From a virus, in the IMG/VR virus record IMGVR_UViG_3300017767_005578, positions 9 through 64,008 of that record: DNA of 64,000 bases, one strand, 5' to 3'. Below the pieces are notes generated by a model. The model searched no databases and was not told where the DNA came from. It worked only from the letters and a program-made list of their open reading frames with translations. Made by a program: the position numbers and the translations under genes. Of the stretch, positions 489 through 64,000 are shown piece after piece (position 1 is the stretch's first letter; each line of letters starts with the position of its first letter).

Positions 489-551
489 TAACAGGTTGTA
501 AACGCAACCTCGTTCCTCGGTAGTCGCTCAAGCTCGTTTACAAGGGCGTTA
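489..551 (-). repeat. attC-like hairpin site A (63 bp)
   Basis: Minus strand reads TAAC-GCCC-TTGTAAACG...CGTTTACAA-CCT-GTTA; 50/63 identical to site at 6525-6587. Confidence 0.8.
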
Positions 552-560
552 GTGGTAATA

Positions 561-746
561 CTACTTACTACCAAAATATTTTTTAGGTATCATACATTTT
601 TCTATAAGTCTTTTATGAACTTCTTCTTGTGAAGGAATCAATTCAAGAAAGCTTTTTAAAGAATCAGACATACCTAAATCAATAGGTTTTATTTCCGTAC
701 TACCACTAACATTATTTAAATTCAATTTATCTTTCGCTTTGCTCAT
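561..746 (-). CDS. hypothetical protein (61 aa), fused across an attC-like junction
   Basis: ORF track; NV|SGS junction = AAT GTT AGT GGT AGT, complementary to ATTACCACTAAC after the stop. Confidence 0.6.
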   Translation of the reverse strand: MSKAKDKLNLNNVSGSTEIKPIDLGMSDSLKSFLELIPSQEEVHKRLIEKCMIPKKYFGSK

Positions 747-798
747 TCTAAACAGTATTTACATTTATCATTGTAATCACATTAAAACGTGTTACAAA

Positions 799-999
799 AA
801 CGTGTATAGGTAATTATTACCCTTGCTTTTCTGCGTTATCAAAGGCATTATCTATCCATTCTTGTATGGTTTGCCCTTGTGGTATAAATAATTGGTTGTT
901 TTTATAAAGTGCATACATAAGTATTTCAAATTGTTCTTTCTTCATAATTATATTTTTAAGTTATTAAATCGGGCAAAAACTACCCATACACAATGCGTT
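799..999 (-). repeat. long-loop attC-like site D
   Basis: AAC...TGTATGGGTAGTTTTTGCCC (990-971) pairs with GGGTAATAATTACCTATACA (822-803), then C-GTT; 3 G-T wobbles and 1 mismatch. Confidence 0.65.
817..945 (-). CDS. small hypothetical protein (42 aa, MKKEQFEILMYALYKNNQLFIPQGQTIQEWIDNAFDNAEKQG), absent from ORF track
   Basis: Translated by hand; A-rich leader; lies in the loop of site D. Confidence 0.55.
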   Translation of the reverse strand: MKKEQFEILMYALYKNNQLFIPQGQTIQEWIDNAFDNAEKQG

Positions 1000-1007
1000 G
1001 TACGCAA

Positions 1008-1226
1008 TTATTCGGGAAACCATTCAGTTATTGTTGTATCAACAAACTCTTGTCCACCAACTGCATTTATCATATCATTAGTATAAGCAACCGCTTCGTT
1101 GTACCTAATAAATACTTGGTCATCAGAAGTTGCATAAAAACTCAGAAGTTGTTGTCCAAGTTCTGTTTCAAAAATCTCATTAGCTTTTTCTTGTGTCATT
1201 GTCGTAAATTTAACTGCGTACAACAT
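1008..1226 (-). CDS. hypothetical cassette protein (likely start Met10, MTQEKAN)
   Basis: ORF track; flanked by GTTGTACGCA (997-1006) and TGCGTACAAC (1215-1224). Confidence 0.65.
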   Translation of the reverse strand: MLYAVKFTTMTQEKANEIFETELGQQLLSFYATSDDQVFIRYNEAVAYTNDMINAVGGQEFVDTTITEWFPE

Positions 1227-1308
1227 TGCATAAAGTTAATACGCTATGATGGTCAGTACTTTAATTTAAAAGTTTAGGTAAAGCGTACTAACCTTATACT
1301 TTACCGTT
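1222..1308 (-). repeat. long-loop attC-like site C
   Basis: AAC-GGTAAA-GTATAAGGTTAGTACGCT / AGCGTATTAACTTTATGC-AAT-GTT; 18-bp stem with 3 G-T wobbles, 36-nt loop. Confidence 0.75.
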
Positions 1309-1322
1309 AGTTAGCAATAACA

Positions 1323-1961
1323 CTAAGTCCATTGCTCTGCCATAGCTTTTGCAATTCCTGGATATGTCTTACTTCTTAATTTAGCCCTATCTTTTGTTGG
1401 GGGTAGTTTATTTTGTCCTGTGTCTGTTTGATTATCCCAATATTTTTTTCTTCCAAATATTCTAGGTTCAATATATTTTGTTCCATTAAGATTTGGAAGC
1501 CCTTTAAGCCACAAACACGTTCTTTTACTTGCGTTATCTCCAAATTCATAAGGCTGTATTGTTTGATTTGGTTTTTTAAACATTGTGCTTAATTTACCTA
1601 CTGGATTTTCTATTGCTATTTTTGGTATTCCTGAGTTCCATAGTTTTTTAACAAAATCAACAGCTTCTATCCTAGCTTTTTTTCTTTTTGTTCCAACAAG
1701 TGTTCCTTTTTTTACTTTTTGGTGATAAGGAGGTTCTTTGTAAGCCCATTCTGCACTACAAGTTAAATAAGTGCAATCAGGAAAAAATATTCCCATATCC
1801 CATTTTTTTAAATTTATTGCTTCAAAAACATCCATTTGTAAATGCCATTCAGGATGACCTCCGCTACAAGGAATTATGTCACAAGAAAAAGCCTCATGTC
1901 CTCGCTTTCTCAACTCTATTGTTACCGCTTGGCTCTCTTCGCAGCCTACTAATATTTTCAT
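1323..1961 (-). CDS. phage DNA cytosine methyltransferase-like protein (atypical)
   Basis: MKILVGCEESQ...SCDI..CSGGHPEWH N-terminus, FPDCTYL catalytic-like motif, IAIENPVG, KRTCLWLKGLP, RSKTYPGIAKAMAEQW typical of this phage family. Confidence 0.7.
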   Translation of the reverse strand: MKILVGCEESQAVTIELRKRGHEAFSCDIIPCSGGHPEWHLQMDVFEAINLKKWDMGIFFPDCTYLTCSAEWAYKEPPYHQKVKKGTLVGTKRKKARIEAVDFVKKLWNSGIPKIAIENPVGKLSTMFKKPNQTIQPYEFGDNASKRTCLWLKGLPNLNGTKYIEPRIFGRKKYWDNQTDTGQNKLPPTKDRAKLRSKTYPGIAKAMAEQWT

Positions 1962-1976
1962 AATTTAATTTACTAA

Positions 1977-2624
1977 TTAACAAGTCTGAACTCCAAAAAT
2001 ATCATCTTCATGGATAACCACATAATCTTCACCTTCTATCTTAAGATCAACAGCACCCAGAGGTTTAACAACAATCACATCACCTTTACTAACTTCATCA
2101 GCAATAAACCTTGAAGGAGCAACCACCTCTAATAAATCTTCTGTTTTTTTATTCTTAAGGTAGTCTGGAATTATTAAGGTTGTGGATTGGAATATGTTTT
2201 TATACTTCTTACAAATGGACCACTTGTGTATTGGGATTATCTCTCCGTCTACGATTTTACAATATGAGCTAGTAGCATACTTAGCAATCATATCTCTAAA
2301 GAACCGAAAGAAAAACTTACCGTCTTCTGTTCTTCTCTCAAAATTAACCACATGATGATGAAAGTAAACAACATCACCTTCATCTATTTCATCCAGAGTT
2401 ATTTGGTCTTTCTTAACTATACTACTAAGCCCTCTTGGTTTTCCTACTACCGTTCCTTTGTGAGGTATCAAAGAAGGATCTAAAGGAGCTGTGCCGTCTT
2501 CTTCCATTCTGGAGAATATTGTATCCATGTAAAGCTCTACTTCTTTTTCTCCTAATTTTATGGTTTTTTTCAAATGCTGTTTTAGGTCAATATCAACAAG
2601 CATAAAATCTTTTACGTATATCAT
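1977..2624 (-). CDS. co-chaperonin GroES-like protein with two tandem domains
   Basis: C-half IIPIH...LIIPD...EVVAPS...VSKGDVIV...LKIEGEDYVVIHEDDIFGV matches GroES; N-half GTVVGKP...IDEGDVVYFHHHV is also GroES-like. Confidence 0.7.
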   Translation of the reverse strand: MIYVKDFMLVDIDLKQHLKKTIKLGEKEVELYMDTIFSRMEEDGTAPLDPSLIPHKGTVVGKPRGLSSIVKKDQITLDEIDEGDVVYFHHHVVNFERRTEDGKFFFRFFRDMIAKYATSSYCKIVDGEIIPIHKWSICKKYKNIFQSTTLIIPDYLKNKKTEDLLEVVAPSRFIADEVSKGDVIVVKPLGAVDLKIEGEDYVVIHEDDIFGVQTC

Positions 2625-2824
2625 AGCTTCTCAAAAAAATAATCAAAAACTTCTTTAGTGTAAATCTCAAACTTACCGTCTGTATGTTTTACGACAAAAT
2701 CTGTCTTAAAAGGAAACATAAAGGTGTCTTTCTTTGTTCCAACGAAGTCTAGAATTTCTTTAGCATTTTTTCCGTTGTATTGCAATGCCTGAATTACTTC
2801 AGGTTTTTTTCTATAAAAATCCAT
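2621..2824 (-). CDS. conserved phage hypothetical protein (YRKKPEVIQALQY family)
   Basis: ORF track; N-terminal KKP.V.A.Q motif common in phages. Confidence 0.6.
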   Translation of the reverse strand: MDFYRKKPEVIQALQYNGKNAKEILDFVGTKKDTFMFPFKTDFVVKHTDGKFEIYTKEVFDYFFEKL

Positions 2825-2844
2825 GTTTTGTATAAAATTATTGT

Positions 2845-3102
2845 TTAATGTTCTTTATCGTACATGTCCTGCGCCCTTTCGTTTAGCTGCTCTAAAATAT
2901 CATCGTTATCTGTTAGTGACTCAAACATCTCAGTAACATCAACTGGTGGGCTTAAAGGTCTTAAACAGGTTAAAACTTTATTGTACCCTATCACACCACC
3001 TTCGTATGGAGGGGTGTAATAATCCCCAGGGCAGCCTTCTTCTATTTCCACATCTGTAAATGTGTACTCTATTCCTTTGAATGATAAATCTATATCCGTC
3101 AT
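2845..3102 (-). CDS. hypothetical acidic protein (GDYYTPP motif)
   Basis: ORF track. Confidence 0.55.
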   Translation of the reverse strand: MTDIDLSFKGIEYTFTDVEIEEGCPGDYYTPPYEGGVIGYNKVLTCLRPLSPPVDVTEMFESLTDNDDILEQLNERAQDMYDKEH

Positions 3103-3248
3103 TTTAATTTAATTTTCGTTATTGCTTTTTATTTTTTTATCTCTTTCGTTTAGCTTTTTTTGACACTCCACAGAGCAAACCGTAAAAATAGTGGTTATTT
3201 TACGGTTACATATTACGCAGTTACCAGGGAACAAACTTACTTGTAATT

Positions 3249-3944
3249 TCATATATGGTCTTTATAAAAATCCTTATCTCTAATGATTCTACTTACAATG
3301 TTGTAGCCTAATACTAGGTCGATTGATAACTTCCTCTTAGAGCGTGTCTGGTGCAACATAATAACCTTCCTAACCTTATCCAAATCCTTTTCAACAGGGA
3401 TAAGCTTTTTACCTCTTTTTTTAAATCCAAAAGGTGCTTTTCTGCTGTAGACTTCTAAGTTCTTTTTTTTGTTTTGAAGAATTGTAGACGTTCTCTCAGA
3501 GATAATACCTCTCTCCATTTCGTTAAGAGATAGCATTAATGATATGAAGAACTTTCCTGTTGCTGTATTGGTATCTATTGATTCACCATTTAAGTCTAGG
3601 ATTGACATTCCTATTCCTTCTTTATTAAGTGTGTCAATAAAAGTAAGACCGTCTATTACTTTTCTGGATATACGATCAAGCTTCCATGATACAACGTGGT
3701 TTATCTCTTTGTTGTCGATTCTTTCCTTAAGGATAGAACCTCCTGGTCTTTTGAATATTTTAGAACCTCCTGAGATGTCTTCGTCAATAATTATATCAAC
3801 TACCTCATAATCTTTTTCTTTGCAGAACAGGACACATTTATCCTTCTGCATCTCTAATGAGTTATCTTGTTTGTTTGTAGATACTCTAATGTAAATAATT
3901 GCTTGGGTTTTCATAATGACTAATTTAATTATTTGTAATGACAA
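3249..3944 (-). CDS. serine recombinase (resolvase/invertase catalytic domain plus short C-terminal extension)
   Basis: IYIRVSTNKQ (catalytic Ser), SLEMQ, DEDISGG, KLDRISR, E..IISERT, APFGF; likely start Met11. Confidence 0.9.
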   Translation of the reverse strand: MSLQIIKLVIMKTQAIIYIRVSTNKQDNSLEMQKDKCVLFCKEKDYEVVDIIIDEDISGGSKIFKRPGGSILKERIDNKEINHVVSWKLDRISRKVIDGLTFIDTLNKEGIGMSILDLNGESIDTNTATGKFFISLMLSLNEMERGIISERTSTILQNKKKNLEVYSRKAPFGFKKRGKKLIPVEKDLDKVRKVIMLHQTRSKRKLSIDLVLGYNIVSRIIRDKDFYKDHI

Positions 3945-4053
3945 AACATATTTAAAGTATGTTTTTTTTGAACAGGGTATAGAAGTAGTAGTTAGATTAA
4001 TTCATCTATTATTCGATTGGACAAAAATGGTACAAGTCTAGAACGAAGTGATA

Positions 4054-4845
4054 CTACGAACACTTAATCCCCAAACTAAACTTAGATAGATAAGAAGTAT
4101 ACATCATATCTAATTTAAAGAGAAACCTCGAATCGTAGTCATCACCTCCTTGGTAGAACTTTGAATCTGGAACGTATTGATGTTTTTCTACATCAACCTT
4201 TAAAAAAGTAATTAGATTATTTAACTTCTTATATATCTTCCCTTTTTTGTGAAAGATAGTGGGATCATCGTATGCTCTTCTCAAAGCAGCAGCCGTCCTC
4301 TCGTCGCCTTTATCAATCATTCCTGCCCTTTTCCTGTCAGAGATAACTTTTCTCCCAGCCAGAGCGTTTAATGACCTTGAAGCGTCAATAAGGGAGCAAC
4401 CCCAAATTTCTGCACATTTCTCTCTTGAGGCAGTTACCTCTAAGCTTCTAAAAAACTGCGAATGCTCTTGTAATTCTTCTGGAGAATTGAGTAACCAAGC
4501 TTTGAGACCTTTTATCCCAAAGCTTTTAAGGTACTTCGTTGACTTCTTGCTTGCTTTTCTTAATGCTTTTGTTTCTTGAGCAGAAATGTGTTCTCTTAGA
4601 GACTCAGCTCTAAGTAATTCTTTTATCGTATATATTTTACTTGATTGGTGTCTTTTTTTATTTGGTTTATTATCGTTATATCTGCAGTCTACTGACTTGC
4701 ATATTTTTTTCAGTGATCTAAGGTAGATGTTTGGACCTTTTATGTCTATCCATCCTAAACTTTGAAGAGCTTGTAGTCTTCTGTTGATAGTTTTAACAGA
4801 GAGTTGGGTATCCATTTCAAGGACAACCATTTCATAATCTTTCAC
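4054..4845 (-). CDS. winged-helix DNA-binding protein, possibly replication-related
   Basis: LSVKTINRRLQALQSLGWI and CAEIWGCSLIDASRSLNAL HTH-like segments; frame is open 51 codons further upstream. Confidence 0.45.
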   Translation of the reverse strand: MKDYEMVVLEMDTQLSVKTINRRLQALQSLGWIDIKGPNIYLRSLKKICKSVDCRYNDNKPNKKRHQSSKIYTIKELLRAESLREHISAQETKALRKASKKSTKYLKSFGIKGLKAWLLNSPEELQEHSQFFRSLEVTASREKCAEIWGCSLIDASRSLNALAGRKVISDRKRAGMIDKGDERTAAALRRAYDDPTIFHKKGKIYKKLNNLITFLKVDVEKHQYVPDSKFYQGGDDYDSRFLFKLDMMYTSYLSKFSLGIKCS

Positions 4846-5006
4846 ACAGCCGCTGTATTCTAGTGTTTTTAAATAGCAGTAGAACTCGAAATCTTTAACT
4901 TTTTTCTTGTTAAGAATAGCTTTTGCTAACCCAGGAACTAGGGTTATTTGCGTGAGTGATATATATTTATTACTTTTGATGAAGTTCTTTTTATTTATTC
5001 ACAAAG

Positions 5007-5035
5007 CAAATATAAGGATTGGAATCCAGATTCAA
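5007..5035 (-). promoter_or_regulatory. Bacteroidota sigma-A type promoter
   Basis: Minus strand TTG-18nt-TATATTTG matches the -33/-7 (TAnnTTTG) consensus. Confidence 0.5.
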
Positions 5036-5045
5036 GATATGATTT

Positions 5046-5915
5046 TCATTGATTGGTCTGGATTTTCTTTTTTCTGTTGCTTTCATTTTGTAATATAATG
5101 TCAAATATTATTCTTTCGTGTTTGTAGGCTACTTTTCTTAGTAGTTTAGAGTAGGGATATATGTCGAAATGGTCATTAATTTCTTCAAAAGTACACCCTT
5201 TTTCTATTTTTTTCTTAAAACTTTTTTTGTAGGTTTCTATTATTTTAGAAAGTCTAGTACGGTAGCCATTTCTTATAAATTTAGTATATTTTTTCTCTTC
5301 TAGCACAAAAAACTTTTTAACACTTCTATGGTCATTAAGTTGGAAGTATTTTTTATTAAGTTCGTTGTATGACATTATATTGTTGTTTATGTCGTATATG
5401 ATGTCTTTTTTATTTTGTTCAAATCTTTTTCGGGCTAAAGAATCTTTTTTTGCTTTTTCTTTAATGATTAGAAGATCATTTGAAACATCCTCGTTAAGGA
5501 TTTTACCTTTTAGTATCAGGAAGTGATTTGCTATATAATTTTTTTTACAGATTCTTCTATCAACTAGGTGTTGATTATCCTCAAACATTTTGGTGTAGTG
5601 ATAGAATGTGCATCTGGATTTGTCTGTTATTATTGAGAATGTTTCGTGAACATTTTTTGCTTTGTAGTCACCAAGAAGTTCGTGTATTAGGTATGTAAAC
5701 ACAGCCATTGGTCCAATATCTTCTGAGCTTCTGGATGGTGATACCAGGGTTTCTATTTCAAAGTATTCTTTAACTTTTTCAGCCAGTTCTATTATTTTAT
5801 TTCCTTGGTCTGTAAGTTTGTACTTTAGTTTTATAATGTTTTTGGCTTCTTCTAGGCTTTCACCACATTGGATTAGTAGAACTATTTCGTTTAGTTCTTT
5901 ATCGGTATATGTCAT
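5046..5915 (-). CDS. hypothetical protein with DnaA C-terminal-like HTH segment
   Basis: SPSRSSEDIGPMAVFTYLIHE...KSRCTFYHYTK resembles the DnaA domain IV pattern. Confidence 0.4.
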   Translation of the reverse strand: MTYTDKELNEIVLLIQCGESLEEAKNIIKLKYKLTDQGNKIIELAEKVKEYFEIETLVSPSRSSEDIGPMAVFTYLIHELLGDYKAKNVHETFSIITDKSRCTFYHYTKMFEDNQHLVDRRICKKNYIANHFLILKGKILNEDVSNDLLIIKEKAKKDSLARKRFEQNKKDIIYDINNNIMSYNELNKKYFQLNDHRSVKKFFVLEEKKYTKFIRNGYRTRLSKIIETYKKSFKKKIEKGCTFEEINDHFDIYPYSKLLRKVAYKHERIIFDIILQNESNRKKKIQTNQ

Positions 5916-5942
5916 ATTAATTTTAGTATAGGGTTTTTAGGG

Positions 5943-6185
5943 CTATCTTTTTTTTCCTTTGTGCAAACCATGTTTAGCGTGTTGCTTGCCTTGTTTTGTT
6001 GCTGCTCTTTTTTTTCTGTTTGCCGCTGCTAGTTTTTTTCTACCTGCGGCAGTAGATTTAAGCTTTGTGATTGTTTTTTTAGGAGCGTAAACTTCTCCTG
6101 TTTCAGAAGATTTTTTCCCTGAAGCTGTTGTCCATTTTTGTTTGGTCCACTTGTCTAGACTTTTCTGAGATTTAGCTTTAGCCAT
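5943..6185 (-). CDS. highly basic small phage protein
   Basis: SLDKWTKQKWTT..GKKS..TGEVY.PK family seen in aquatic phages; very Lys-rich. Confidence 0.7.
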   Translation of the reverse strand: MAKAKSQKSLDKWTKQKWTTASGKKSSETGEVYAPKKTITKLKSTAAGRKKLAAANRKKRAATKQGKQHAKHGLHKGKKR

Positions 6186-6189
6186 TTAA

Positions 6190-6378
6190 TTACTTTTTAG
6201 ATTTATAACCTCCTCCTGCTGCTTTATATTTCTTAGCAAGCATTTGGGCTTTTCTTGCAGACCACTGACCAGCGTTACCTCCTTTAGATCCTGCTTTTAT
6301 TTGATTAAAAAGCTTTTTCCTCATTGTTGGTTTTGTGTAGTTACCAGCTTTGTTGACTGTACTTTTCTTGGCTTTCAT
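6190..6378 (-). CDS. highly basic small phage protein (DUF5872-like)
   Basis: NYTKPTMRK...GGNAGQWSARKAQMLAKKYKAAGGGY motif. Confidence 0.7.
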   Translation of the reverse strand: MKAKKSTVNKAGNYTKPTMRKKLFNQIKAGSKGGNAGQWSARKAQMLAKKYKAAGGGYKSKK

Positions 6379-6486
6379 CTAATAGTATTTATTTGTTTTT
6401 TTTGGAGCAGGTTTTTTCTTACCTGTTGCTTTCTTTTTTGTTGTAATTTTCTTTACTAATTTTTTATTACCGCTTCCGTATTTCAT
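6379..6486 (-). CDS. 35-aa Lys-rich peptide MKYGSGNKKLVKKITTKKKATGKKKPAPKKTNKYY, absent from ORF track
   Basis: Translated by hand; its TAG abuts the ATG of the next gene; TATATTGA element upstream. Confidence 0.65.
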   Translation of the reverse strand: MKYGSGNKKLVKKITTKKKATGKKKPAPKKTNKYY

Positions 6487-6524
6487 TTTAATAATTTTTT
6501 TTCAATATACGAAAAAATAGTTAT

Positions 6525-6587
6525 TAACAAGTTGTAATTGCAAGCTCGTACCTCGCCAGTCGCACAAGCTCAATTACAAGTATGTTA
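6525..6587 (-). repeat. attC-like hairpin site B (63 bp)
   Basis: TAAC-ATAC-TTGTAATTG...CAATTACAA-CTT-GTTA; compensatory changes relative to site A. Confidence 0.8.
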
Positions 6588-6594
6588 GCAAACA

Positions 6595-6810
6595 TTACTT
6601 ACTTGCTTCATATCTTTCATTCCAACAAGGGAAACACAACCCATCATTTAAGTCTTGTACTTTATTTCCACACTTACACGTAAGCAACGATTTGCTAACA
6701 TTAGCTATACGTAATTGCTCTTCGTAAGCATCTATAATTCTTTGTGCTTCTAAATATTGTTCTTCTGTTATCATAAGTTTAGTTTTTAATACGCAACTAC
6801 GCATAGCCAC
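6595..6810 (-). CDS. small Cys-containing hypothetical protein (likely start MITEEQ), fused across an attC-like junction
   Basis: CKC...CFPC in C-terminal part; IANV|SKS junction. Confidence 0.55.
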   Translation of the reverse strand: MAMRSCVLKTKLMITEEQYLEAQRIIDAYEEQLRIANVSKSLLTCKCGNKVQDLNDGLCFPCWNERYEASK

Positions 6811-6818
6811 GTCCGTTA
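6697..6818 (-). repeat. long-loop attC-like site
   Basis: TAAC-GGACGTG-GCTATGCGTAGTTGC / GCAATTACGTATAGC-TAAT-GTT; 15-bp stem with 2 G-T wobbles, 74-nt loop. Confidence 0.75.
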
Positions 6819-11065: not shown

Positions 11066-11674
11066 TTAGTAATATTGTTCTCCATCTTCTGTAAATTCAT
11101 ACTCATTAGCTATAATACTCTCCTCTATAGCTTCTCTAGAAGTATAGTACTCGTATCCTTGTTCTAGTGAATCGTATATCTTGTTACATATATCTTCGTA
11201 GTGTTCTCTTATTTCATATAAGATGTCTTCGCAGATGTCTTCTATATTGGAATAGTTTTTATATTGCCAATCGTTAGTAAATTCAGTTTCTAAGTTATCT
11301 GAATAACTTTTTGAATGGTAGTAATGTCCACTTTGTTTGAAGCTACCGTATATGTTTATATCACCGTTTTTAATTAGCTTGATAACTCTGGACCAATTTT
11401 TTTGATATTGCTGGTTGTTATATCCTGGAGTTATGAAGTTTAGTATATCTTCGTTTGGTGATCCTTCAAACATAGCACCGTCACCTTGTGACCAGAATCC
11501 TCTGAAATATATTTTATCAATATCGAATCCTGTTTCATCTTCCTTGTACATTTCGTATACGTGTTCCCACCAATCATAATGTGTATTAATGTCGTGAAAT
11601 TTTTCAATTACTTTTTCTTGTGCTTCTTCACTAAGTTCCTTGAACTTGTAAATTTCAATTGTTTCTTTTCTCAT
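11066..11674 (-). CDS. conserved phage/MGE hypothetical protein (YKFKELSEEAQEK...DWWE...FWSQGDGA family)
   Basis: Family motif recognised; function not established. Confidence 0.6.
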   Translation of the reverse strand: MRKETIEIYKFKELSEEAQEKVIEKFHDINTHYDWWEHVYEMYKEDETGFDIDKIYFRGFWSQGDGAMFEGSPNEDILNFITPGYNNQQYQKNWSRVIKLIKNGDINIYGSFKQSGHYYHSKSYSDNLETEFTNDWQYKNYSNIEDICEDILYEIREHYEDICNKIYDSLEQGYEYYTSREAIEESIIANEYEFTEDGEQYY

Positions 11675-11754
11675 GATATTTATATTTTATCCTCATTAGA
11701 TTAAGTGTGTAACCTTGAGCGAGGATATTACTCAAGGTCACACATTTATTATTA
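11672..11754 (-). promoter_or_regulatory. structured intergenic leader, copy 1 (14-bp hairpin plus possible pseudoknot)
   Basis: TGTGTGACCTTGAG-11nt-CTCAAGGTTACACA; loop ATCCTC is complementary to downstream GAGGAT. Confidence 0.6.
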
Positions 11755-12723
11755 AGCCCAACCCAACTTAGTAGCTAGATTAAGCATTTCACTGTATTCT
11801 ATCTTATGGCATCCTACTACCATATCTCCTGAACTATGTATAAGGTCAACACTATATACACCTATCTCAAAAGTTACACCGTTACGCTTCCATTGTTGTC
11901 CCGTTTCAACAACGTGTTGAACTAGCTTCCAAAGTTTCTTAGCGTTATCCATAGGTACTTCTGCTCTCCTACTGGTTTCAATGGTTTCACTGTCTTTTAC
12001 TCTTAACAAGTACCCTGCTACGTATGGACAGTAGCTTGTTTCGTGGTTTCTCCACTTCTCAATACCTTCTTTTGCTTCAGCTAATTCCCTAGCTTTTTTA
12101 CGCTTTTCAGCTTCTATAGCTTTACGCTTATTTTCTTTTATCTTTTTTATAGCATCTTCAGATAAAAGTATTTCTAAGGGATTGTCAGAATATATTAATT
12201 CTTTTTCTGACTTTTTGAGTTTAGATTTTAGCTTGAATATATTGGTTAAGTTAACAGCGTGTTCTATATGAGAATTTATTTCTCTAGTATAGTCATATTT
12301 TCTAGCTCTTAACTGTTTTTTAGCTAGTTCTTCAACGCTTTTAATGTGTTCACGTACATTGTTAACAAATGTTTCTTTTTCTTTAGAATAATCATTGTCT
12401 CTATGCGTGTAGCCGTAGGGCATTTTATTAACATTTATACGTGTATAGTGACTAGGAATAGCATAACTAACGGCATTCTGTTGTTTTGCTGTTGTGTTAC
12501 TATAAGAGTGATCATACCAAAGGACCAAAGTTCCGTAATCTTTGTTTTTGTGTTCTTCTGGTGTTACTATTCTAGCAATTTCAAAGTGACTACCGTATGA
12601 GTAGATACTTTTATTGTTAAAATAGAAGCTGTTTCCGCTGTTTCTAGCGTGTTCTTGTGATTGATGCGCCCAAAGGTGAGCGATTTCATCTTTGCTTGAA
12701 AATACTTGTTTTATTCGTGCCAT
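11752..12723 (-). CDS. conserved early phage protein (YSYGSHF / YSNTTAKQQ family)
   Basis: Family motifs recognised; function unknown. Confidence 0.6.
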   Translation of the reverse strand: MARIKQVFSSKDEIAHLWAHQSQEHARNSGNSFYFNNKSIYSYGSHFEIARIVTPEEHKNKDYGTLVLWYDHSYSNTTAKQQNAVSYAIPSHYTRINVNKMPYGYTHRDNDYSKEKETFVNNVREHIKSVEELAKKQLRARKYDYTREINSHIEHAVNLTNIFKLKSKLKKSEKELIYSDNPLEILLSEDAIKKIKENKRKAIEAEKRKKARELAEAKEGIEKWRNHETSYCPYVAGYLLRVKDSETIETSRRAEVPMDNAKKLWKLVQHVVETGQQWKRNGVTFEIGVYSVDLIHSSGDMVVGCHKIEYSEMLNLATKLGWA

Positions 12724-12803
12724 AACTTTTATATTTTATCCTCTTAATTTTTTGTGTGTAACCTTAAGTGAGGATGTTACTCAAGGTTGCACATTTATTA
12801 TTA
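12721..12803 (-). promoter_or_regulatory. structured intergenic leader, copy 2
   Basis: TGTGCAACCTTGAG-11nt-CTTAAGGTTACACA, same loop/GAGGAT arrangement as copy 1. Confidence 0.6.
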
Positions 12804-41583: not shown

Positions 41584-44500
41584 ATGCCAGACAGTATAAG
41601 TATAAATATCCCAGAATACGGTAGTTTCACTAAAGAGCAACTTCAAGAAGAGTATGGTGAAAATTGGTTACAAGCGATAGATCAGCTCAATGGAACTGTT
41701 GATGTTCCTGATTATGGTAGTTATAGCTACTCAGAATTAAAAGAATCTTATGGCGAGAACATTGAGGATGCTTTAGACCAACTTTCGGGTAAAAAAAAAG
41801 ACCAAGAAGAGCCTCAAGAAGAAGTTCAAGAAGTGGTTCAGGAAGAACCTCAAGAGGTGGTTCAAGAAGATACGGAATCTGTATCGGAAGATGGTTCTTT
41901 GGAATCTCAAGATTGGAGGGGTGAGCAAAAGAAGTCAGTAACTCCTGTTGTAACTTCTGACGAAGAGACTTTTAAATCTTTACAACAACAAGGAAGATTA
42001 GAAGAAGAGAAAAAGGAAGAGTTTTTAGAGGCTTCAGAACAAAAAGCAGAGTCTGATTTTAGACCTAAAGAAGAAAAAGGAGGTCAAGAGGCTGTTTCTA
42101 AATTTTTAACAGAAAACAATTTTAGCTCTTTAGACGCACTGCCTACTGAGTTTTTAGAAACAATAAAAGAGCAAAATCCTACTGTGTTTAACACAGATAT
42201 AGAAAGAAATTTATACTCTGCTAGAAACGAAGAATTAACAAGCATTTCAAAATCTTATTTAGAAAACAGAAAAAATGCTATTCAATCAGAAGAAGTTTCG
42301 GCTGGAAAGACAGAAGAAGAGGCTAAGAAAATAGCAGATTTAGAGATACAAGATGAAACTGGTAGAATTGGTATTTCTAGTCTAGGGTATGATGAAGATG
42401 AAATAAACCAATACAAAGGTGCGATAAAAAATAGGTCAAATGCTTTATTAAAAATAAGCAAGATAAAAAGAGACCCTAGTAAAAAAGCAGAGTTAGAAAA
42501 GCTACAGGAAATAGTTAAAGTTTCTGATAAAAAAATATCAGAATTAAGAGAAAACTCAGACAAGGCTTTTATAGATGAAAACGGTGATGTAAACAAAGAC
42601 CTTAAGGAGGATGTAAAGCAAAGAGAAATAGGTTTTGAAAAAGAGTATAAATCAGATTACGTTAAGCTCCATGATAGACTAAAGTTAGAGATAGCCAAGA
42701 GAGATGCTCTTAGAGAAAACTTTGTTAAAACATTAACTCCTGAGCAGTATCAAAATTTTGGTGGAGATAAGTTTATAATAAACAAAGGAACAGATAACGA
42801 GCAAGAAAAAGGTGCTTATGCTACTGTTGATAATATACTAGGAGGTAAGGATGCTGATTATTCTGAATATTTCATGGGAGATATTTATGATGCTAAATTA
42901 AAAGCAAAATCAGAATCTTATGTAGAGGCTTACGACGATGCTGATAGAAACATCACAGCACTATCAAGGTTATTATTACTCAACGAAGACCCTGCTGCTG
43001 TAGAAAGAGGTTGGGGTACTGTTTTTAGTGCAGAGGATAGTGAGTTTTATTTACCAGGTTTAGACAAGTTTGGTGAGGTTGTTACGTCTTTTGGTGAATC
43101 TATTTATGAGGAAATAACAGGAGTGGACTACAGCTCTAATCTTGATTTTAGGCAAAATGCAGTTAATATCCTTCAAGACGAAGGAATGAAACTGACCGAA
43201 GAGCAAATAGAAGCAGGGGAAAAGAATTTTTCAGAAAAACTAGGAGAAACTTTAGGGGTTTCAGGGGCGATAGGTTTAGAGATTCTAGCAACTAGAAATG
43301 TTATAGGTGGCGGTTACAAGCTTTTAAACATACCTAAATATTTGTCTAAAATTTCTTACTTAAGAAAAAGCCCTAAGCTTGTTAAGTTTTTAGACAACAC
43401 AGCAGAAATAGTAACAGAAGGTTTAGCTTTTGAACTTGCTGATGATAGAACAGATTTCTTCATGGGTGCGGCAGAGTCTACTTCAGCAAAAGGTTTTGAT
43501 GCTTTAATAAGTAAGCTTTCCAAGTCTAAGTATGGTAAGTTCCTAAAGTACTTAGATAATTACGCAGGTAGATTTGCAAAAGAGGTTACATCAAGAACGG
43601 TTGGTGGTGTTACAGAGGAGTATGTTGGTGATTTTGTTTCTGAAGGTGTTAAGAATGGATTCTTCACAGAGGAGCAATATAAAAATGTTTTTGGAGAGGG
43701 CGAAGAAGGTGTAGAGAAGTTTTTACTTACTCTAGGGTCTGTTGGGTTTATGACCTTCCCTACAGGATTTGTAGAAGCTGCTAAGAAGAGAGCTGAAGGA
43801 GACCCTACGGGTTCTTTAGCACAAGCTATAGAGGCTTATGAGTCAGCTCAGAACCCAGAGGTTACTACTGAAAAAGTTAAAAAATCAATAGAAAATCTTA
43901 CTAACACACTAAAAGGAGAAGATGTTGATTTAGAAGGTTTAACAGATGAGAAAAAATTAGAGATTATTGGTTTAGATGTTTTTGATAAGAACCAAAGAGC
44001 AGTAGACGCTAAAGAGAAAGATGCTGAGATTGAGAAAATAGTAGGAGAAGAAGTGGAGTCAGAACCTCAAAGACTAGATGATATGTCTGAAGAGGAACTA
44101 GAGGCATACGCTAAGGAGAATGATATAGATGTATCAGAGTTAAAGAAAAAAGCGAAGGCTAAAGAACCTCAAAGACTAGATGATATGTCTGAAGAGGAGT
44201 TAGAGGTATACGCTAAAGAGAATGATATAGATGTATCAGAGCTAAAGAAAAAAGCGAAGGCTACAGAAGCTAAAACAGAAGAAGTTACAACTGAAGAAAC
44301 TACTGAAGATGCTTTAACTTCTGAAACTGTAACAGATAAAAAGGGAAGAACACTTACTTATTTTGAAAATACAGAAACTAAAGACGGTATAACAAAAACC
44401 ACTTATACATTTAACAGAAGTGACAAAGATTCTTCTCAAAGAAATACAACTGGGGTTAAACCAGAAGTAGCTTTAGATAATAAAGGATATGAGGTAACAG

Positions 44501-56495: not shown

Positions 56496-56695
56496 TAAAA
56501 CATGTTCTTTTTATGGTCAGGATTGGATTTAAAATACTCGTCTTTTATCTCTACTGATTTATGTATATAAAATGTGTAACCATCAGGAGAGGTGTTTTTA
56601 CAAGTAACAAATGTTTCATCAATCTTACACACTTCGTATTCTTCTCCTTTGTAGGTAAAGACATCTCCTTTTTTTAAATGTAAAATTTTACTCAT
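56495..56695 (-). CDS. small hypothetical protein
   Basis: ORF track. Confidence 0.5.
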   Translation of the reverse strand: MSKILHLKKGDVFTYKGEEYEVCKIDETFVTCKNTSPDGYTFYIHKSVEIKDEYFKSNPDHKKNMF

Positions 56696-56709
56696 GCTAA
56701 AATGTTTAT

Positions 56710-56734
56710 AAAAAAAAGAGGGTTTTACCCCTCC
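56710..56734 (-). terminator. intrinsic terminator
   Basis: GAGGG/CCCTC stem followed by T-run on the minus strand. Confidence 0.5.
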
Positions 56735-57870
56735 TTATAATTTTTAATGTTCACTCTAAAAGTAGCTCTTTTTCCTTCAGGGCGTTTATTAAGTATTCTA
56801 CCATTGTCTCCAAAAGAGATAACCTCATCATACTTAGAGAAAGCCATAATCTTTTGCTTTAGCTTGTCCTTGGTTTTTTCAAGCAAAGCTATATCATCTG
56901 TACAAGTTTTATACTGTACAGCTATATCCCATTCTTCCTCTTCTCCTTTTCTAGATGTGTCTTCGTAAGATACTTTATACTTGTCTTTATAAAACTCTAA
57001 ATAAGCTTCGTTTCCTGACGGCTCTGGTTCTATGTCTGTTATTTGCCTATCTATCTCCAGCTCATCACCTTCAGAGTTGTATATGTCTCTAGCCATAGTC
57101 ACACGATTCCAGAACTCATAAGACTTTACGATAATCTCTTGACATAATTCTAGGTCCATGTCTAAAGGCAATACATTAAAGTCCACACCTGCTACTAGGT
57201 ATGCAAGTTCAGAGTATGTAATACCTAACACTATCATTTGAAGGTTTGTTTGAACTACGTACCTGTGTGGTATTCCTAGTTCATACTTCTCTGCTGCGAA
57301 CTGAGAAACCATCTTTATTTCTAGAGAAGCGTCTGACTCGATTACCTCACCTGTAAAGGGTGAAACCTGTCCTCCTGGGATAAAGAAGTCTAAGGAAGCT
57401 GATAAATGCGGATAGTTGATGTTTACAGCGTAACAAGGGATAGGAACTTTAGTTCTAATCTTTTTAGCTTGCGTCCAGTTATCTACCCAACCTGTTTCAG
57501 TTCCATCGTAGAACTCCCATAGGTCTGATATTTTCTCCTCAAAGTGCAAACCGTTTACAGTAAACTTTGTTGCAAAGGGAGGTATGTCGTAATCTATCTT
57601 ACTTCTGAAAAGTTTTACAGAATCACCATACTCATCCATTTCTATAATTGTAGCTATCTCTGATGATCCTATTGTATTTTTTCTAAACGAATACCAATCT
57701 TCATTTCTTTTACCTTCAATAAACTGAGGGATAAAAAAACCGTATACATCTTCTTTTATTTGTTTAGCGTACTTAGCGTATTCTCCTAAGTGTGCGATTT
57801 CCTCTGGTAGGTTACACCCAAGATTATCTAATGATAAATCTATTTTATTCATTTCCAATGTTGTTGACAT
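56725..57870 (-). CDS. YqaJ-like (lambda-Exo family) exonuclease
   Basis: WYSFRKNTIGSSEIATI, G..FE, LSASLD, LEIK, YVVQTNLQM. Confidence 0.85.
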   Translation of the reverse strand: MSTTLEMNKIDLSLDNLGCNLPEEIAHLGEYAKYAKQIKEDVYGFFIPQFIEGKRNEDWYSFRKNTIGSSEIATIIEMDEYGDSVKLFRSKIDYDIPPFATKFTVNGLHFEEKISDLWEFYDGTETGWVDNWTQAKKIRTKVPIPCYAVNINYPHLSASLDFFIPGGQVSPFTGEVIESDASLEIKMVSQFAAEKYELGIPHRYVVQTNLQMIVLGITYSELAYLVAGVDFNVLPLDMDLELCQEIIVKSYEFWNRVTMARDIYNSEGDELEIDRQITDIEPEPSGNEAYLEFYKDKYKVSYEDTSRKGEEEEWDIAVQYKTCTDDIALLEKTKDKLKQKIMAFSKYDEVISFGDNGRILNKRPEGKRATFRVNIKNYKEG

Positions 57871-63609: not shown

Positions 63610-64000
63610 TTAAAAGGAATATACCGCTGCCAGAACTATGCTAGACAGGTTGTCCTTTTGCTCAAATACTTGCTCACTTGCTTTGTCTAATCTATACTCT
63701 AACTTTAGATTCATATTCTCTATTGCATAATCCAAAGTAGTAGTAAAGTTTATAACATTAGCGTCTGCTCCAATTGCTCCAACTCCACTTCCAACTTCAG
63801 CGAAGTACTCACCTCTCAACCCTGCGGTTAATTTACCAAAAGAATATTGAGGATACAAAGCTGCTCCATAAAAACCGTTGCCATCAGTGTCATTATATGT
63901 AGAATTTATTCCTAAATAAAATTTCTCTGACAAGTCATAACCACCTGTTAAGTCAATCTGGAACGTAGCTTCAGAGCTAGGATCTTGCTTTCCTAATAAA
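63610..64000 (-). CDS. outer-membrane beta-barrel porin (BBP2/OmpL-like), 5' part outside the window
   Basis: Frame open to the window edge; amphipathic strands, LRGEYF, KLEYRLD, terminal AAVYSF. Confidence 0.7.
   Translation of the reverse strand, partial: LLGKQDPSSEATFQIDLTGGYDLSEKFYLGINSTYNDTDGNGFYGAALYPQYSFGKLTAGLRGEYFAEVGSGVGAIGADANVINFTTTLDYAIENMNLKLEYRLDKASEQVFEQKDNLSSIVLAAVYSF

Follow-up and report, generated by a model that had tools for sequence, protein, structure and literature searches.

Genes and sites at the locus

The window, by which we mean the whole 64,000-nucleotide stretch of viral DNA that was analysed, contains two copies of a long terminal element, both of which are read functionally on the minus (gene-sense) strand. 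Site A lies at 551-489 (covariance model score of 98.7 bits) and the second copy, site B, lies at 6587-6525 (99.1 bits); an earlier note on this sequence had placed both sites here with an identity of 50/63, and these values were confirmed. With a 32-nt core pattern allowing at most 3 mismatches, A and B were the sole matches in the window, with 0 matches in 100 shuffles, and a covariance model run over the window returned only A and B as strong hits, the next best being a 23-bit hit on the opposite strand of B. A looser structural scan of the whole window (YAAC, a stem of at least 7 bp, GTTR) was left unused because its background was as high as its signal, with 28-35 matches versus 26 in shuffles.

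On the gene-sense strand, TAAC opens each site 7-10 nt past a stop codon, and each site ends in TGTTA-AT. The fold consists of P1, formed by TAAC(A/G) and TGTTA, above which come an internal loop with sides of unequal length, then P2, which is 9 bp long and free in sequence, and finally an apical part that contains a 3-bp P3 and a GAGGNACGA loop. In site A, P1 and its spacers correspond to TAACG (551-547), a 5' spacer (546-544), a 3' spacer (495-494) and TGTTA (493-489), while the P2 arms occupy 543-535 and 504-496 and the apical 30 nt (534-505) include P3 (521-519 with 509-507) and the loop (518-510). The corresponding parts of site B are TAACA (6587-6583), the 5' spacer (6582-6580), P2 (6579-6571 with 6540-6532), the apical part (6570-6541) and TGTTA (6529-6525), all on the minus strand as in site A.

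Array A (552-1976, minus strand) occupies the interval between the stop codon of a GroES-like gene (1977-1979) and site A, and its cargo comprises a methyltransferase gene (1323-1961) and small-ORF units at 1008-1226, 817-945 and 561-746, all on the minus strand. Within the array, an internal hairpin site, site C (1221-1309, minus), runs from TAAC to GTTG and encloses an 18-bp stem (3 of its pairs being G.T) and a 35-nt loop, and its 3' box and flank (1224-1215) form a perfect 10-nt complement of the unit end at 1006-997. The last unit of the array (548-710, minus) adjoins site A, and its 3' box and flank GTTAGTGGT (710-702) perfectly complement ACCACTAAC (556-548), which abuts the site. No RNA data set was listed as containing the 7-kb stretch; in RNA-library contigs, considered as contigs alone, this last unit is joined elsewhere to other sequence right after TAACG. 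A conserved gene of 115 amino acids (126-473, minus) keeps its place downstream of site A in every A-type relative and is non-cassette platform DNA.

At site B, a single 231-nt cassette, B1 (6584-6814, minus), is inserted at the 5' TAAC box. Its ORF (6595-6810), Cys-rich and 60-71 aa long, starts within the 74-nt loop of the internal hairpin site of the cassette (6696-6818, minus; TAAC, 17-bp stem with 3 G.T pairs, 74-nt loop, GTTA), and the 3' box and flank of this internal site (6699-6691) are a perfect 9-nt complement of the cassette end (6592-6584). Between A and B lies a gene for a small serine recombinase (3249-3944, minus; PF00239, E 1e-34), and a YqaJ-like exonuclease gene is located at 56725-57870.

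Conservation and covariation of the long element

Approximately 40 distinct homologues of the long element were recovered from marine viromes and metagenomes. A blastn search of isolate phages in GenBank using site A as the query yielded no true match, and a search of 185,579 prokaryote genomes with the core pattern yielded three matches, all of them chance matches in high-GC sequence without the stems. Rfam covariance models gave no match in the window at gathering scores and none in five loci at E up to 1, and scans for tRNA and tmRNA found nothing.

Pairing was scored on MAFFT alignments with no structure fitted. P1, P2 and P3 were all supported, with 97.9% of cells paired versus 89.6% in shuffled alignments and 25-46% when partners were slid by 1-3 columns; for the 40 distinct homologues, 97.7% of cells were paired and the slid controls gave 27-51%. 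The covariation score was 0.286 versus 0.138, and 0 of 500 shuffles scored higher. In P1, TAAC(A/G) was paired with TGTTA in 97.9% of cells, and both AAC and GTT were invariant. Six of the 9 pairs of P2 covary, changed on both sides, and in A, B and almost every homologue this stem pairs throughout, with no bulge. In P3, 1-2 pairs change on both sides (counts for the covarying pair are CG 27, GC 6 and UA 4). The earlier note had described two sets of compensatory differences between A and B, and both are real: AC/GT becomes TT/AA in the 9-bp stem, and the apical ACC..GGT becomes GGC..GCT, which is part of a covarying pair in the 40 distinct homologues. This larger alignment, together with its shuffled and slid controls, strongly supports the proposal that the structure of the long element is under selection.

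An unpaired spacer between the R and L boxes was present in 40/40 rows, measuring 3-4 nt in the 5' arm and 2-4 nt in the 3' arm, confirming the unequal spacer that had been proposed from A and B. The apical 30 nt are almost invariant among unrelated phages. One-sided changes always lead to G.U on the gene-sense strand, as seen at P1 18-79 (GU 13), P1 17-80 (UG 3) and P3 48-62, where GU is found in 34/40 and is the consensus pair of P3. The homologues also include hybrid sites whose arms no longer pair (L030/L036/L065 versus L068; L051/L058).

Array ends, cassette ends and the proposed point of exchange

Sites A and B each form the end of an array, with non-cassette genes coming next, as had been described, and the long element was the last array site in every context where this could be tested. 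At each of 17 sites, the two ends of the unit next to the long element complement each other perfectly. Downstream of the element, a complement of the A/B 3' box and flank was absent in 21/24 contexts; the three 9-mer complements found there (L026, L049, L071) are AT-rich, lie inside coding-like sequence and have no hairpin after them, and were judged to be chance matches.

Cassette ends in the arrays are perfectly complementary over 9-10 nt. Perfect 9-mer complements of the form GTTR+5 ... 5+YAAC, spaced 60-1600 nt apart, numbered 54, compared with 5.0 in shuffles (maximum 12) and 14 in the reverse order. Among 22 internal sites, the stems contain 43 G.T versus 6 A.C pairs, and the sense strand folds better in 22/22, which, like the G.U wobbles of the long element, points to the gene-sense strand as the one that folds.

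The insertions that distinguish relatives fall exactly at the 5' TAA|C box of the element, with the 3' flank remaining fixed. In four relatives (L007, L067, L054 and L073) the GroES stop is joined straight to the A element, and L060 and L073 have an empty site where the window has the additional 231 nt of cassette B1. The TAAC at the GroES stop is followed by the A body in L007 and by four other bodies plus cassettes in L031, L056, L037 and L020. The 5' flank of the long element takes 24 forms, and its 3' flank hardly varies among elements of one body type, although between distant phages the flanks also differ right after TGTTA. The comparative evidence of terminal position, empty and filled sites and flank forms supports the suggestion that A and B represent a distinct terminal or primary-site class.

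Candidate functions of the element

Sites A and B probably belong to a family of folded recombination sites resembling attC, of which they would be two copies of one conserved member, the array-terminal (docking-type) one. Sites of this family would delimit cassette arrays that mirror those of integrons, in marine phages of the Flavobacteriia type, with units inserted or lost by strand exchange at the 5' TAA|C. A gene unit would then consist of a hairpin body, at least one ORF and a half-box ending in TAA. As units would be gained or lost through strand exchange at the 5' TAA|C box, the element body and its 3' flank would remain with the downstream core genes, and the place of the element would be that of attI in an integron read on the bottom strand. 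The junctions suggest site-specific single-strand recombination, and the host may supply the enzyme, an IntI/Xer-type tyrosine recombinase that phages of this lineage do not encode, with the invariant apical part possibly serving as an extra binding or regulatory module.

A search for tyrosine recombinases (PF00589), with controls positive, detected none in 16 virus records (G000 and 15 others) or in Polaribacter phage P12002L, and this counts against the favoured reading; three of these 16 virus records are 92-100% complete. A complete intI-bearing integron was likewise not found, with no intI gene beside the array in the 16 virus records or P12002L. In relatives, the approximately 2.9 kb missing between the ends of the window codes for P-II, an ammonium transporter and a porin, and for no recombinase. 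No partner protein was common to the carriers, and there is hardly any overlap in protein content between the window, G001 and P12002L.

P12002L carries the same site family, including internal site types with CGTTTTAATG and GAGGTACGA loops, and its array has been described as a CALIN, a cluster of attC sites lacking an integrase (Qi et al. 2023, PMC9892861). IntI1 recombined the unit at the end of this array, accepting the gene-sense strand alone, at the same box that we take to be the crossover point, and did not recombine an internal-type site, "attC1" (PMC9892861); the latter result counts against the favoured reading. The terminal unit is present in P12002L in two identical copies. The likeness of the arrays studied here to attC sites and CALINs extends to AAC/GTT boxes at the hairpin base, an unpaired spacer, a free-sequence stem kept by covariation, complementary cassette ends, methyltransferases as frequent cargo and a phage without an integrase. 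The bottom-strand geometry of attC is matched with the genes facing the opposite way, on the folding strand; the crossover box is here 5' in the gene-sense reading and the hairpin travels with the downstream gene. Classical attC sites need extrahelical bases for strand choice; A and B have none, their strand bias coming from G.U pairs alone, and their apical 30 nt are invariant in contrast to the variable terminal loop of attC, both of which count against the favoured reading. In addition, the A/B class never has a cassette after it, whereas internal array sites do have a complementary far half-box. The comparison with the attC spacer made in the earlier note holds for the geometry (AAC/GTT, unpaired spacer, variable stem) and fails for extrahelical bases, a variable loop and an integrase.

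The long element resembles attI in marking a fixed array end, with the newest unit adjoining it and a body that is never exchanged. In contrast, attI is a duplex site by intI with integrase-binding direct repeats, whereas A and B are covarying hairpins with no adjacent recombinase gene, and transcription runs towards A and B and not away from them.

Recombination at A and B is putative, and the same sequences might function as RNA. The element would then be a structured intercistronic or 3' element of early transcripts, acting in processing, stability, attenuation or protein binding, and the breakpoints at its edges would merely mark a conserved module shared by otherwise unrelated sequence. 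We regard this as unlikely to be the main explanation, and it is compatible with the favoured one. The element is always co-oriented with the sense gene, 7-10 nt behind it, its wobbles are all G.U on the sense strand, including the consensus pair of P3, and its apical loop is invariant; the 17% of G.T pairs and the strict co-orientation with genes, which weigh against the recombination-site reading, would also suit RNA. Four loci (L032, L039, L043, L041) have a canonical terminator hairpin just after the element, at the operon end, yet most copies lack a U-tract after it, and Rfam gave no match even at E 1. In a test for intrinsic terminators the sole hairpin flagged was an alternative 6-bp hairpin in A that is conserved neither in B nor in the other types, and a terminator and promoter scan gave no consistent signal. 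A role as RNA leaves unexplained both the 9-10 nt complementarity of cassette ends across an ORF and the joining of one fixed TAAC to five unrelated hairpin bodies.

It is less probable still that the element is a conserved regulatory stem-loop comparable to the PeSLs of T4-like phages, with modules shuffled only by homologous recombination within it, aided by a phage exonuclease/annealase. PeSLs are repeated intergenic stem-loops that border small variable genes in plasticity regions and shuffle modules in this way (PMC2839356, PMC4122927). The YqaJ-like exonuclease gene at 56725-57870 would fit such a process, and the hybrid sites with non-pairing arms (L030/L036/L065 versus L068; L051/L058) point to exchange inside the 30-nt core, so that ordinary homologous exchange within the conserved core also has to be set against the recombination-site reading (L030 versus L068; L051). 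PeSLs, however, rely on sequence homology and combine promoter and terminator (PMC2839356, PMC4122927), whereas here 4-5 nt are shared and neither a promoter consensus nor a T-run is conserved. Most junctions share only TAAC with their partner, the bodies to the right being unrelated in sequence, and complementary cassette ends would not be expected from homologous shuffling.

Finally, it is very improbable that the small serine recombinase whose gene lies between A and B uses them for crossover, which would make the 6-kb replication module excisable or resolvable: although A and B are direct repeats about 3 kb either side of the PF00239 gene, and this gene is kept in the lineage of the window and in L025/L033, it is absent from other carriers and was rejected as the acting enzyme because the complete 70.7-kb phage G001 carries the element but no PF00239 gene, while P12002L has the related site family with no recombinase annotated, the A-B interval is stable in all relatives, and hairpin covariation with a free stem sequence is unlike a dimer-binding duplex site.

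Returning to the recombination-site reading, a more specific and more tentative version of it is that these phages carry a gene-capture system that has no integrase of its own and for which the long element is a dedicated place of docking. Units headed by a hairpin would be inserted at the 5' TAA|C on the transcribed strand by an Xer/IntI-like enzyme of the host, with the invariant apical module as its guide, and unrelated marine phages sharing a host would draw on a common pool of anti-defence and accessory genes. To our knowledge, published integron-like arrays in phages consist of only a few predicted attC clusters (CALINs), and the present addition is a conserved docking-type site at the array terminus. 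The element provides a concrete handle on how units enter arrays without an integrase, being a short site of defined strand that is common to unrelated phages, has had its insertion point mapped and occurs naturally in both empty and filled forms, and it is usable as a search key for arrays in viromes. The arrays have polarity, with a fixed docking end and an open end, which is relevant to the acquisition of methyltransferases and further counter-defence genes by marine phages.

The folded attP of CTX-phi (host XerCD, IMEX) offers a further likeness, in that A and B too would be single-stranded, folded phage sites acted on by a tyrosine recombinase of the host, the phage having no integrase, with the difference that there a whole genome integrates at dif, whereas here it would be small units that change place inside phage genomes. 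Some of the boxes, for example GCGCATAAC and ATGTTAAAT, may resemble the arms of dif.

Covariation and folding strand of the long element

The long element, a hairpin site at the downstream end of cassette arrays, is present in the window as site A (489-551, minus strand) and site B (6525-6587, minus strand), and no third copy was detected in pattern and covariance-model scans of the window. Read on the gene-sense strand, each site opens with TAAC plus A or G, 7-10 nt past a stop codon, followed by a 3-nt spacer, a 9-bp stem arm (P2), a 30-nt apical part containing a 3-bp stem (P3), the second arm, a 2-nt spacer, TGTTA and AT, with the terminal TAAC(A/G) and TGTTA forming the basal helix (P1). 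Pattern scans of public collections yielded ~40 distinct homologues, every one of marine virome or metagenome origin. No homologue was found among GenBank phage isolates, 185,579 prokaryote genomes scanned with the pattern gave no true match, and Rfam contained no match to the element.

A and B are 50/63 identical. The earlier note reported that their differences preserve pairing, and alignment of the ~40 homologues bears this out. In plain MAFFT alignments, P2 carries compensatory changes at four pairs (GC/AU, AU/UA, UA/CG/AU and GC/UA/AU). Covariation across the homologues is also reflected in the proportion of paired cells in these alignments (97.9%; shuffles reach 89.6% and slid partners 25-46%), although the homologues are often related and such counts overstate independent events; counting pair types is safer. 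With every match aligned to the covariance model, both sides change at six of the nine P2 pairs; the MAFFT alignments show the same picture as the homologue alignment fitted to the model. The compensatory change proposed for the apical stem likewise holds, with the middle P3 pair being CG (27 rows), GC (6) or UA (4) and the outer pair G.U (34) or A-U (5). Changes in P1 are one-sided only, and each yields G.U on the gene-sense strand and an A.C mismatch on the opposite strand; the folding strand is therefore the gene-sense one.

Cassette arrays and internal hairpins

A signature of cassette ends was defined in which the 3′ box of the hairpin preceding an ORF (GTTR), together with the next five bases, is perfectly complementary to a half-box past that ORF made up of five bases and YAAC. 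Across all loci, the regions upstream contain 54 such 9-mer pairs, 60-1600 nt apart, compared to 5.0 in shuffles (maximum 12) and 14 in reverse order. At 17 sites, the half-box abutting the long element has a complementary partner. In the window, complementary pairs are located at 6699-6691 with 6592-6584, 1224-1215 with 1006-997, and 710-702 with 556-548. The internal hairpins follow the same plan as A and B (TAAC, spacer, stem of 8-18 bp, loop, second arm, spacer, GTTR), and their loops belong to a small number of recurrent types, GAGGWACGA-like and CGTTTTAATG. Their stems contain 43 G.T and 6 A.C oppositions on the gene-sense strand, which is the better fold in 22/22 internal sites by a mean of 7.5 kcal/mol.

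In their sequence organization the arrays are integron-like, and they are of a known kind, phage CALINs (clusters of attC sites lacking an integrase). What is new is the conserved three-helix docking-type element, together with the strand it folds on and the mapped point of insertion. Inside arrays sit short-form relatives of the element (L020:803-878, minus; L019:4509-4585, plus; L061:2148-2205), in which a 17-20 nt apical part retains the GAGGWACGA core alone; the long form resembles this core with ~10 bases added. In L061, a 42-aa ribbon-helix-helix-like ORF and its half-box TAATTGCATATAAC are both present twice in one array (1068-1208 and 2726-2867), one copy preceding an internal hairpin and the other the long element, and a third copy is found in L077.

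Junctions at TAAC and the terminal position

Gene order is kept among close relatives, which differ in the sequence directly 5′ of each element. Six different upstream flanks occur in B-type elements that share one downstream flank, and eleven in A-type elements, which fall into three subtypes; in total the 5′ flanks take 24 forms, with 3′ flanks nearly constant within each body type. Homology among relatives stops exactly at TAAC. In L060 and L073, the sequence preceding window position 6815 runs straight into the B element, whereas the window has 231 additional bases (6814-6584) that themselves end in TAAC. Similarly, the stop codon of a GroES-like gene adjoins the A element directly in four loci (L007, L067, L054 and L073). 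In L031, L056, L037 and L020 it leads instead into hairpins of four other, unrelated kinds with extra genes behind them, and in the window and L015 a methyltransferase gene comes next. In three metatranscriptome libraries, contigs identical to the last unit of array A (547-772) diverge exactly after TAACG, so this unit also occurs beside a different site; these data are contigs only and give no evidence of transcription.

The last cassette varies but the long element keeps the flank downstream of it, and the first hairpin past the fixed GroES stop varies along with its cassette; the crossover would therefore have to lie within the 5′ box as read in gene sense (TAA|C or TAAC|). Each hairpin body would then belong to the gene downstream of it. 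The attC bottom strand of integrons folds as a single strand and is cleaved at its 5′ AA|C box. The geometry here is the same, but the genes lie on the folding strand, a mirror image of the classical layout, and in that frame the long element would occupy the place of attI. No complement to its own 3′ box lies downstream in 21/24 contexts, and the complements in the other three are AT-rich words inside coding-like sequence, comparative evidence that supports the distinct terminal site class suggested in the earlier note.

A role of the element as RNA fits the strand bias in wobble pairs, an orientation that always matches that of the genes, the invariant loop and the placement before true terminators in four contexts, but it accounts neither for the cassette-end complementarity nor for junctions at TAAC to unrelated partners. 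The conserved core does undergo homologous exchange, as L030, L036 and L065 combine the left arm of one type with the right arm of another (L068 is unmixed), yet such exchange cannot produce junctions with only four common bases. The element does not qualify as a standard terminator in a terminator scan.

Carriers and the candidate enzyme

Neither the window's record nor 15 other element-carrying virus records (three of them 92-100% complete) nor Polaribacter phage P12002L yielded a tyrosine recombinase, with positive controls. A 231-aa serine recombinase is encoded between A and B, but it was rejected as the acting enzyme, being absent from the complete 70.7-kb carrier phage G001. Carriers have almost no common proteins except a tail-fibre block, which suggests that their hosts are related. 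From these observations we infer a host-encoded enzyme, most likely a tyrosine recombinase of the IntI/Xer type.

P12002L (NC_028924) has no proteins in common with the window, and the same internal site types lie between its methyltransferase genes; one is 'attC1' of Qi et al. 2023, which was not recombined by IntI1 (PMC9892861). Two separate arrays in this phage are closed by identical 65-nt units on the minus strand (37262-37198 and 29236-29172), each immediately past a half-box with TAAC at its end, so a pair of arrays with the same special cap is seen again, though with a different sequence, in a second phage. IntI1 recombined this unit, published as 'attC2', at the box inferred here, and only with the gene-sense strand delivered (PMC9892861).

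The IMG/VR virus record comprises 64,031 bases, nearly all covered by the window, and represents a low-GC phage whose closest isolate relatives, by single genes, infect Flavobacterium and Cellulophaga. Minus-strand genes occupy 1-15 kb and 56-64 kb, and late genes lie on the plus strand at 16-56 kb. A phage-borne porin fragment (BBP2, E 4e-20) is located at the right end (63610-63999). In relatives, ~2.9 kb bridges the window's two ends (L037:4117-6721) and encodes a P-II protein, a 409-aa ammonium transporter and the full 329-aa porin; the record is therefore a permuted, slightly incomplete phage genome rather than a provirus flanked by host DNA, and it carries a gene set for ammonium uptake. 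In addition, the GroES-like protein (1977-2624, 215 aa) matches GroES (Cpn10, E 6e-8) in its C-terminal 70-90 residues, with no assignment for the N-terminal half. An 83-nt repeat family unrelated to A and B, 83% identical and with a 14-bp hairpin, precedes two early genes (11672-11754 and 12721-12803). Within late structural genes lie a tandem duplication of 102 nt (94% identical; 44061-44264) and a series of 12-nt repeats (41791-41869). Finally, the covariance model weakly matches (19.8 bits) a TAAAA...TTTTA hairpin at 56685-56755 on the plus strand, probably an ordinary terminator at the meeting point of converging late and early genes.
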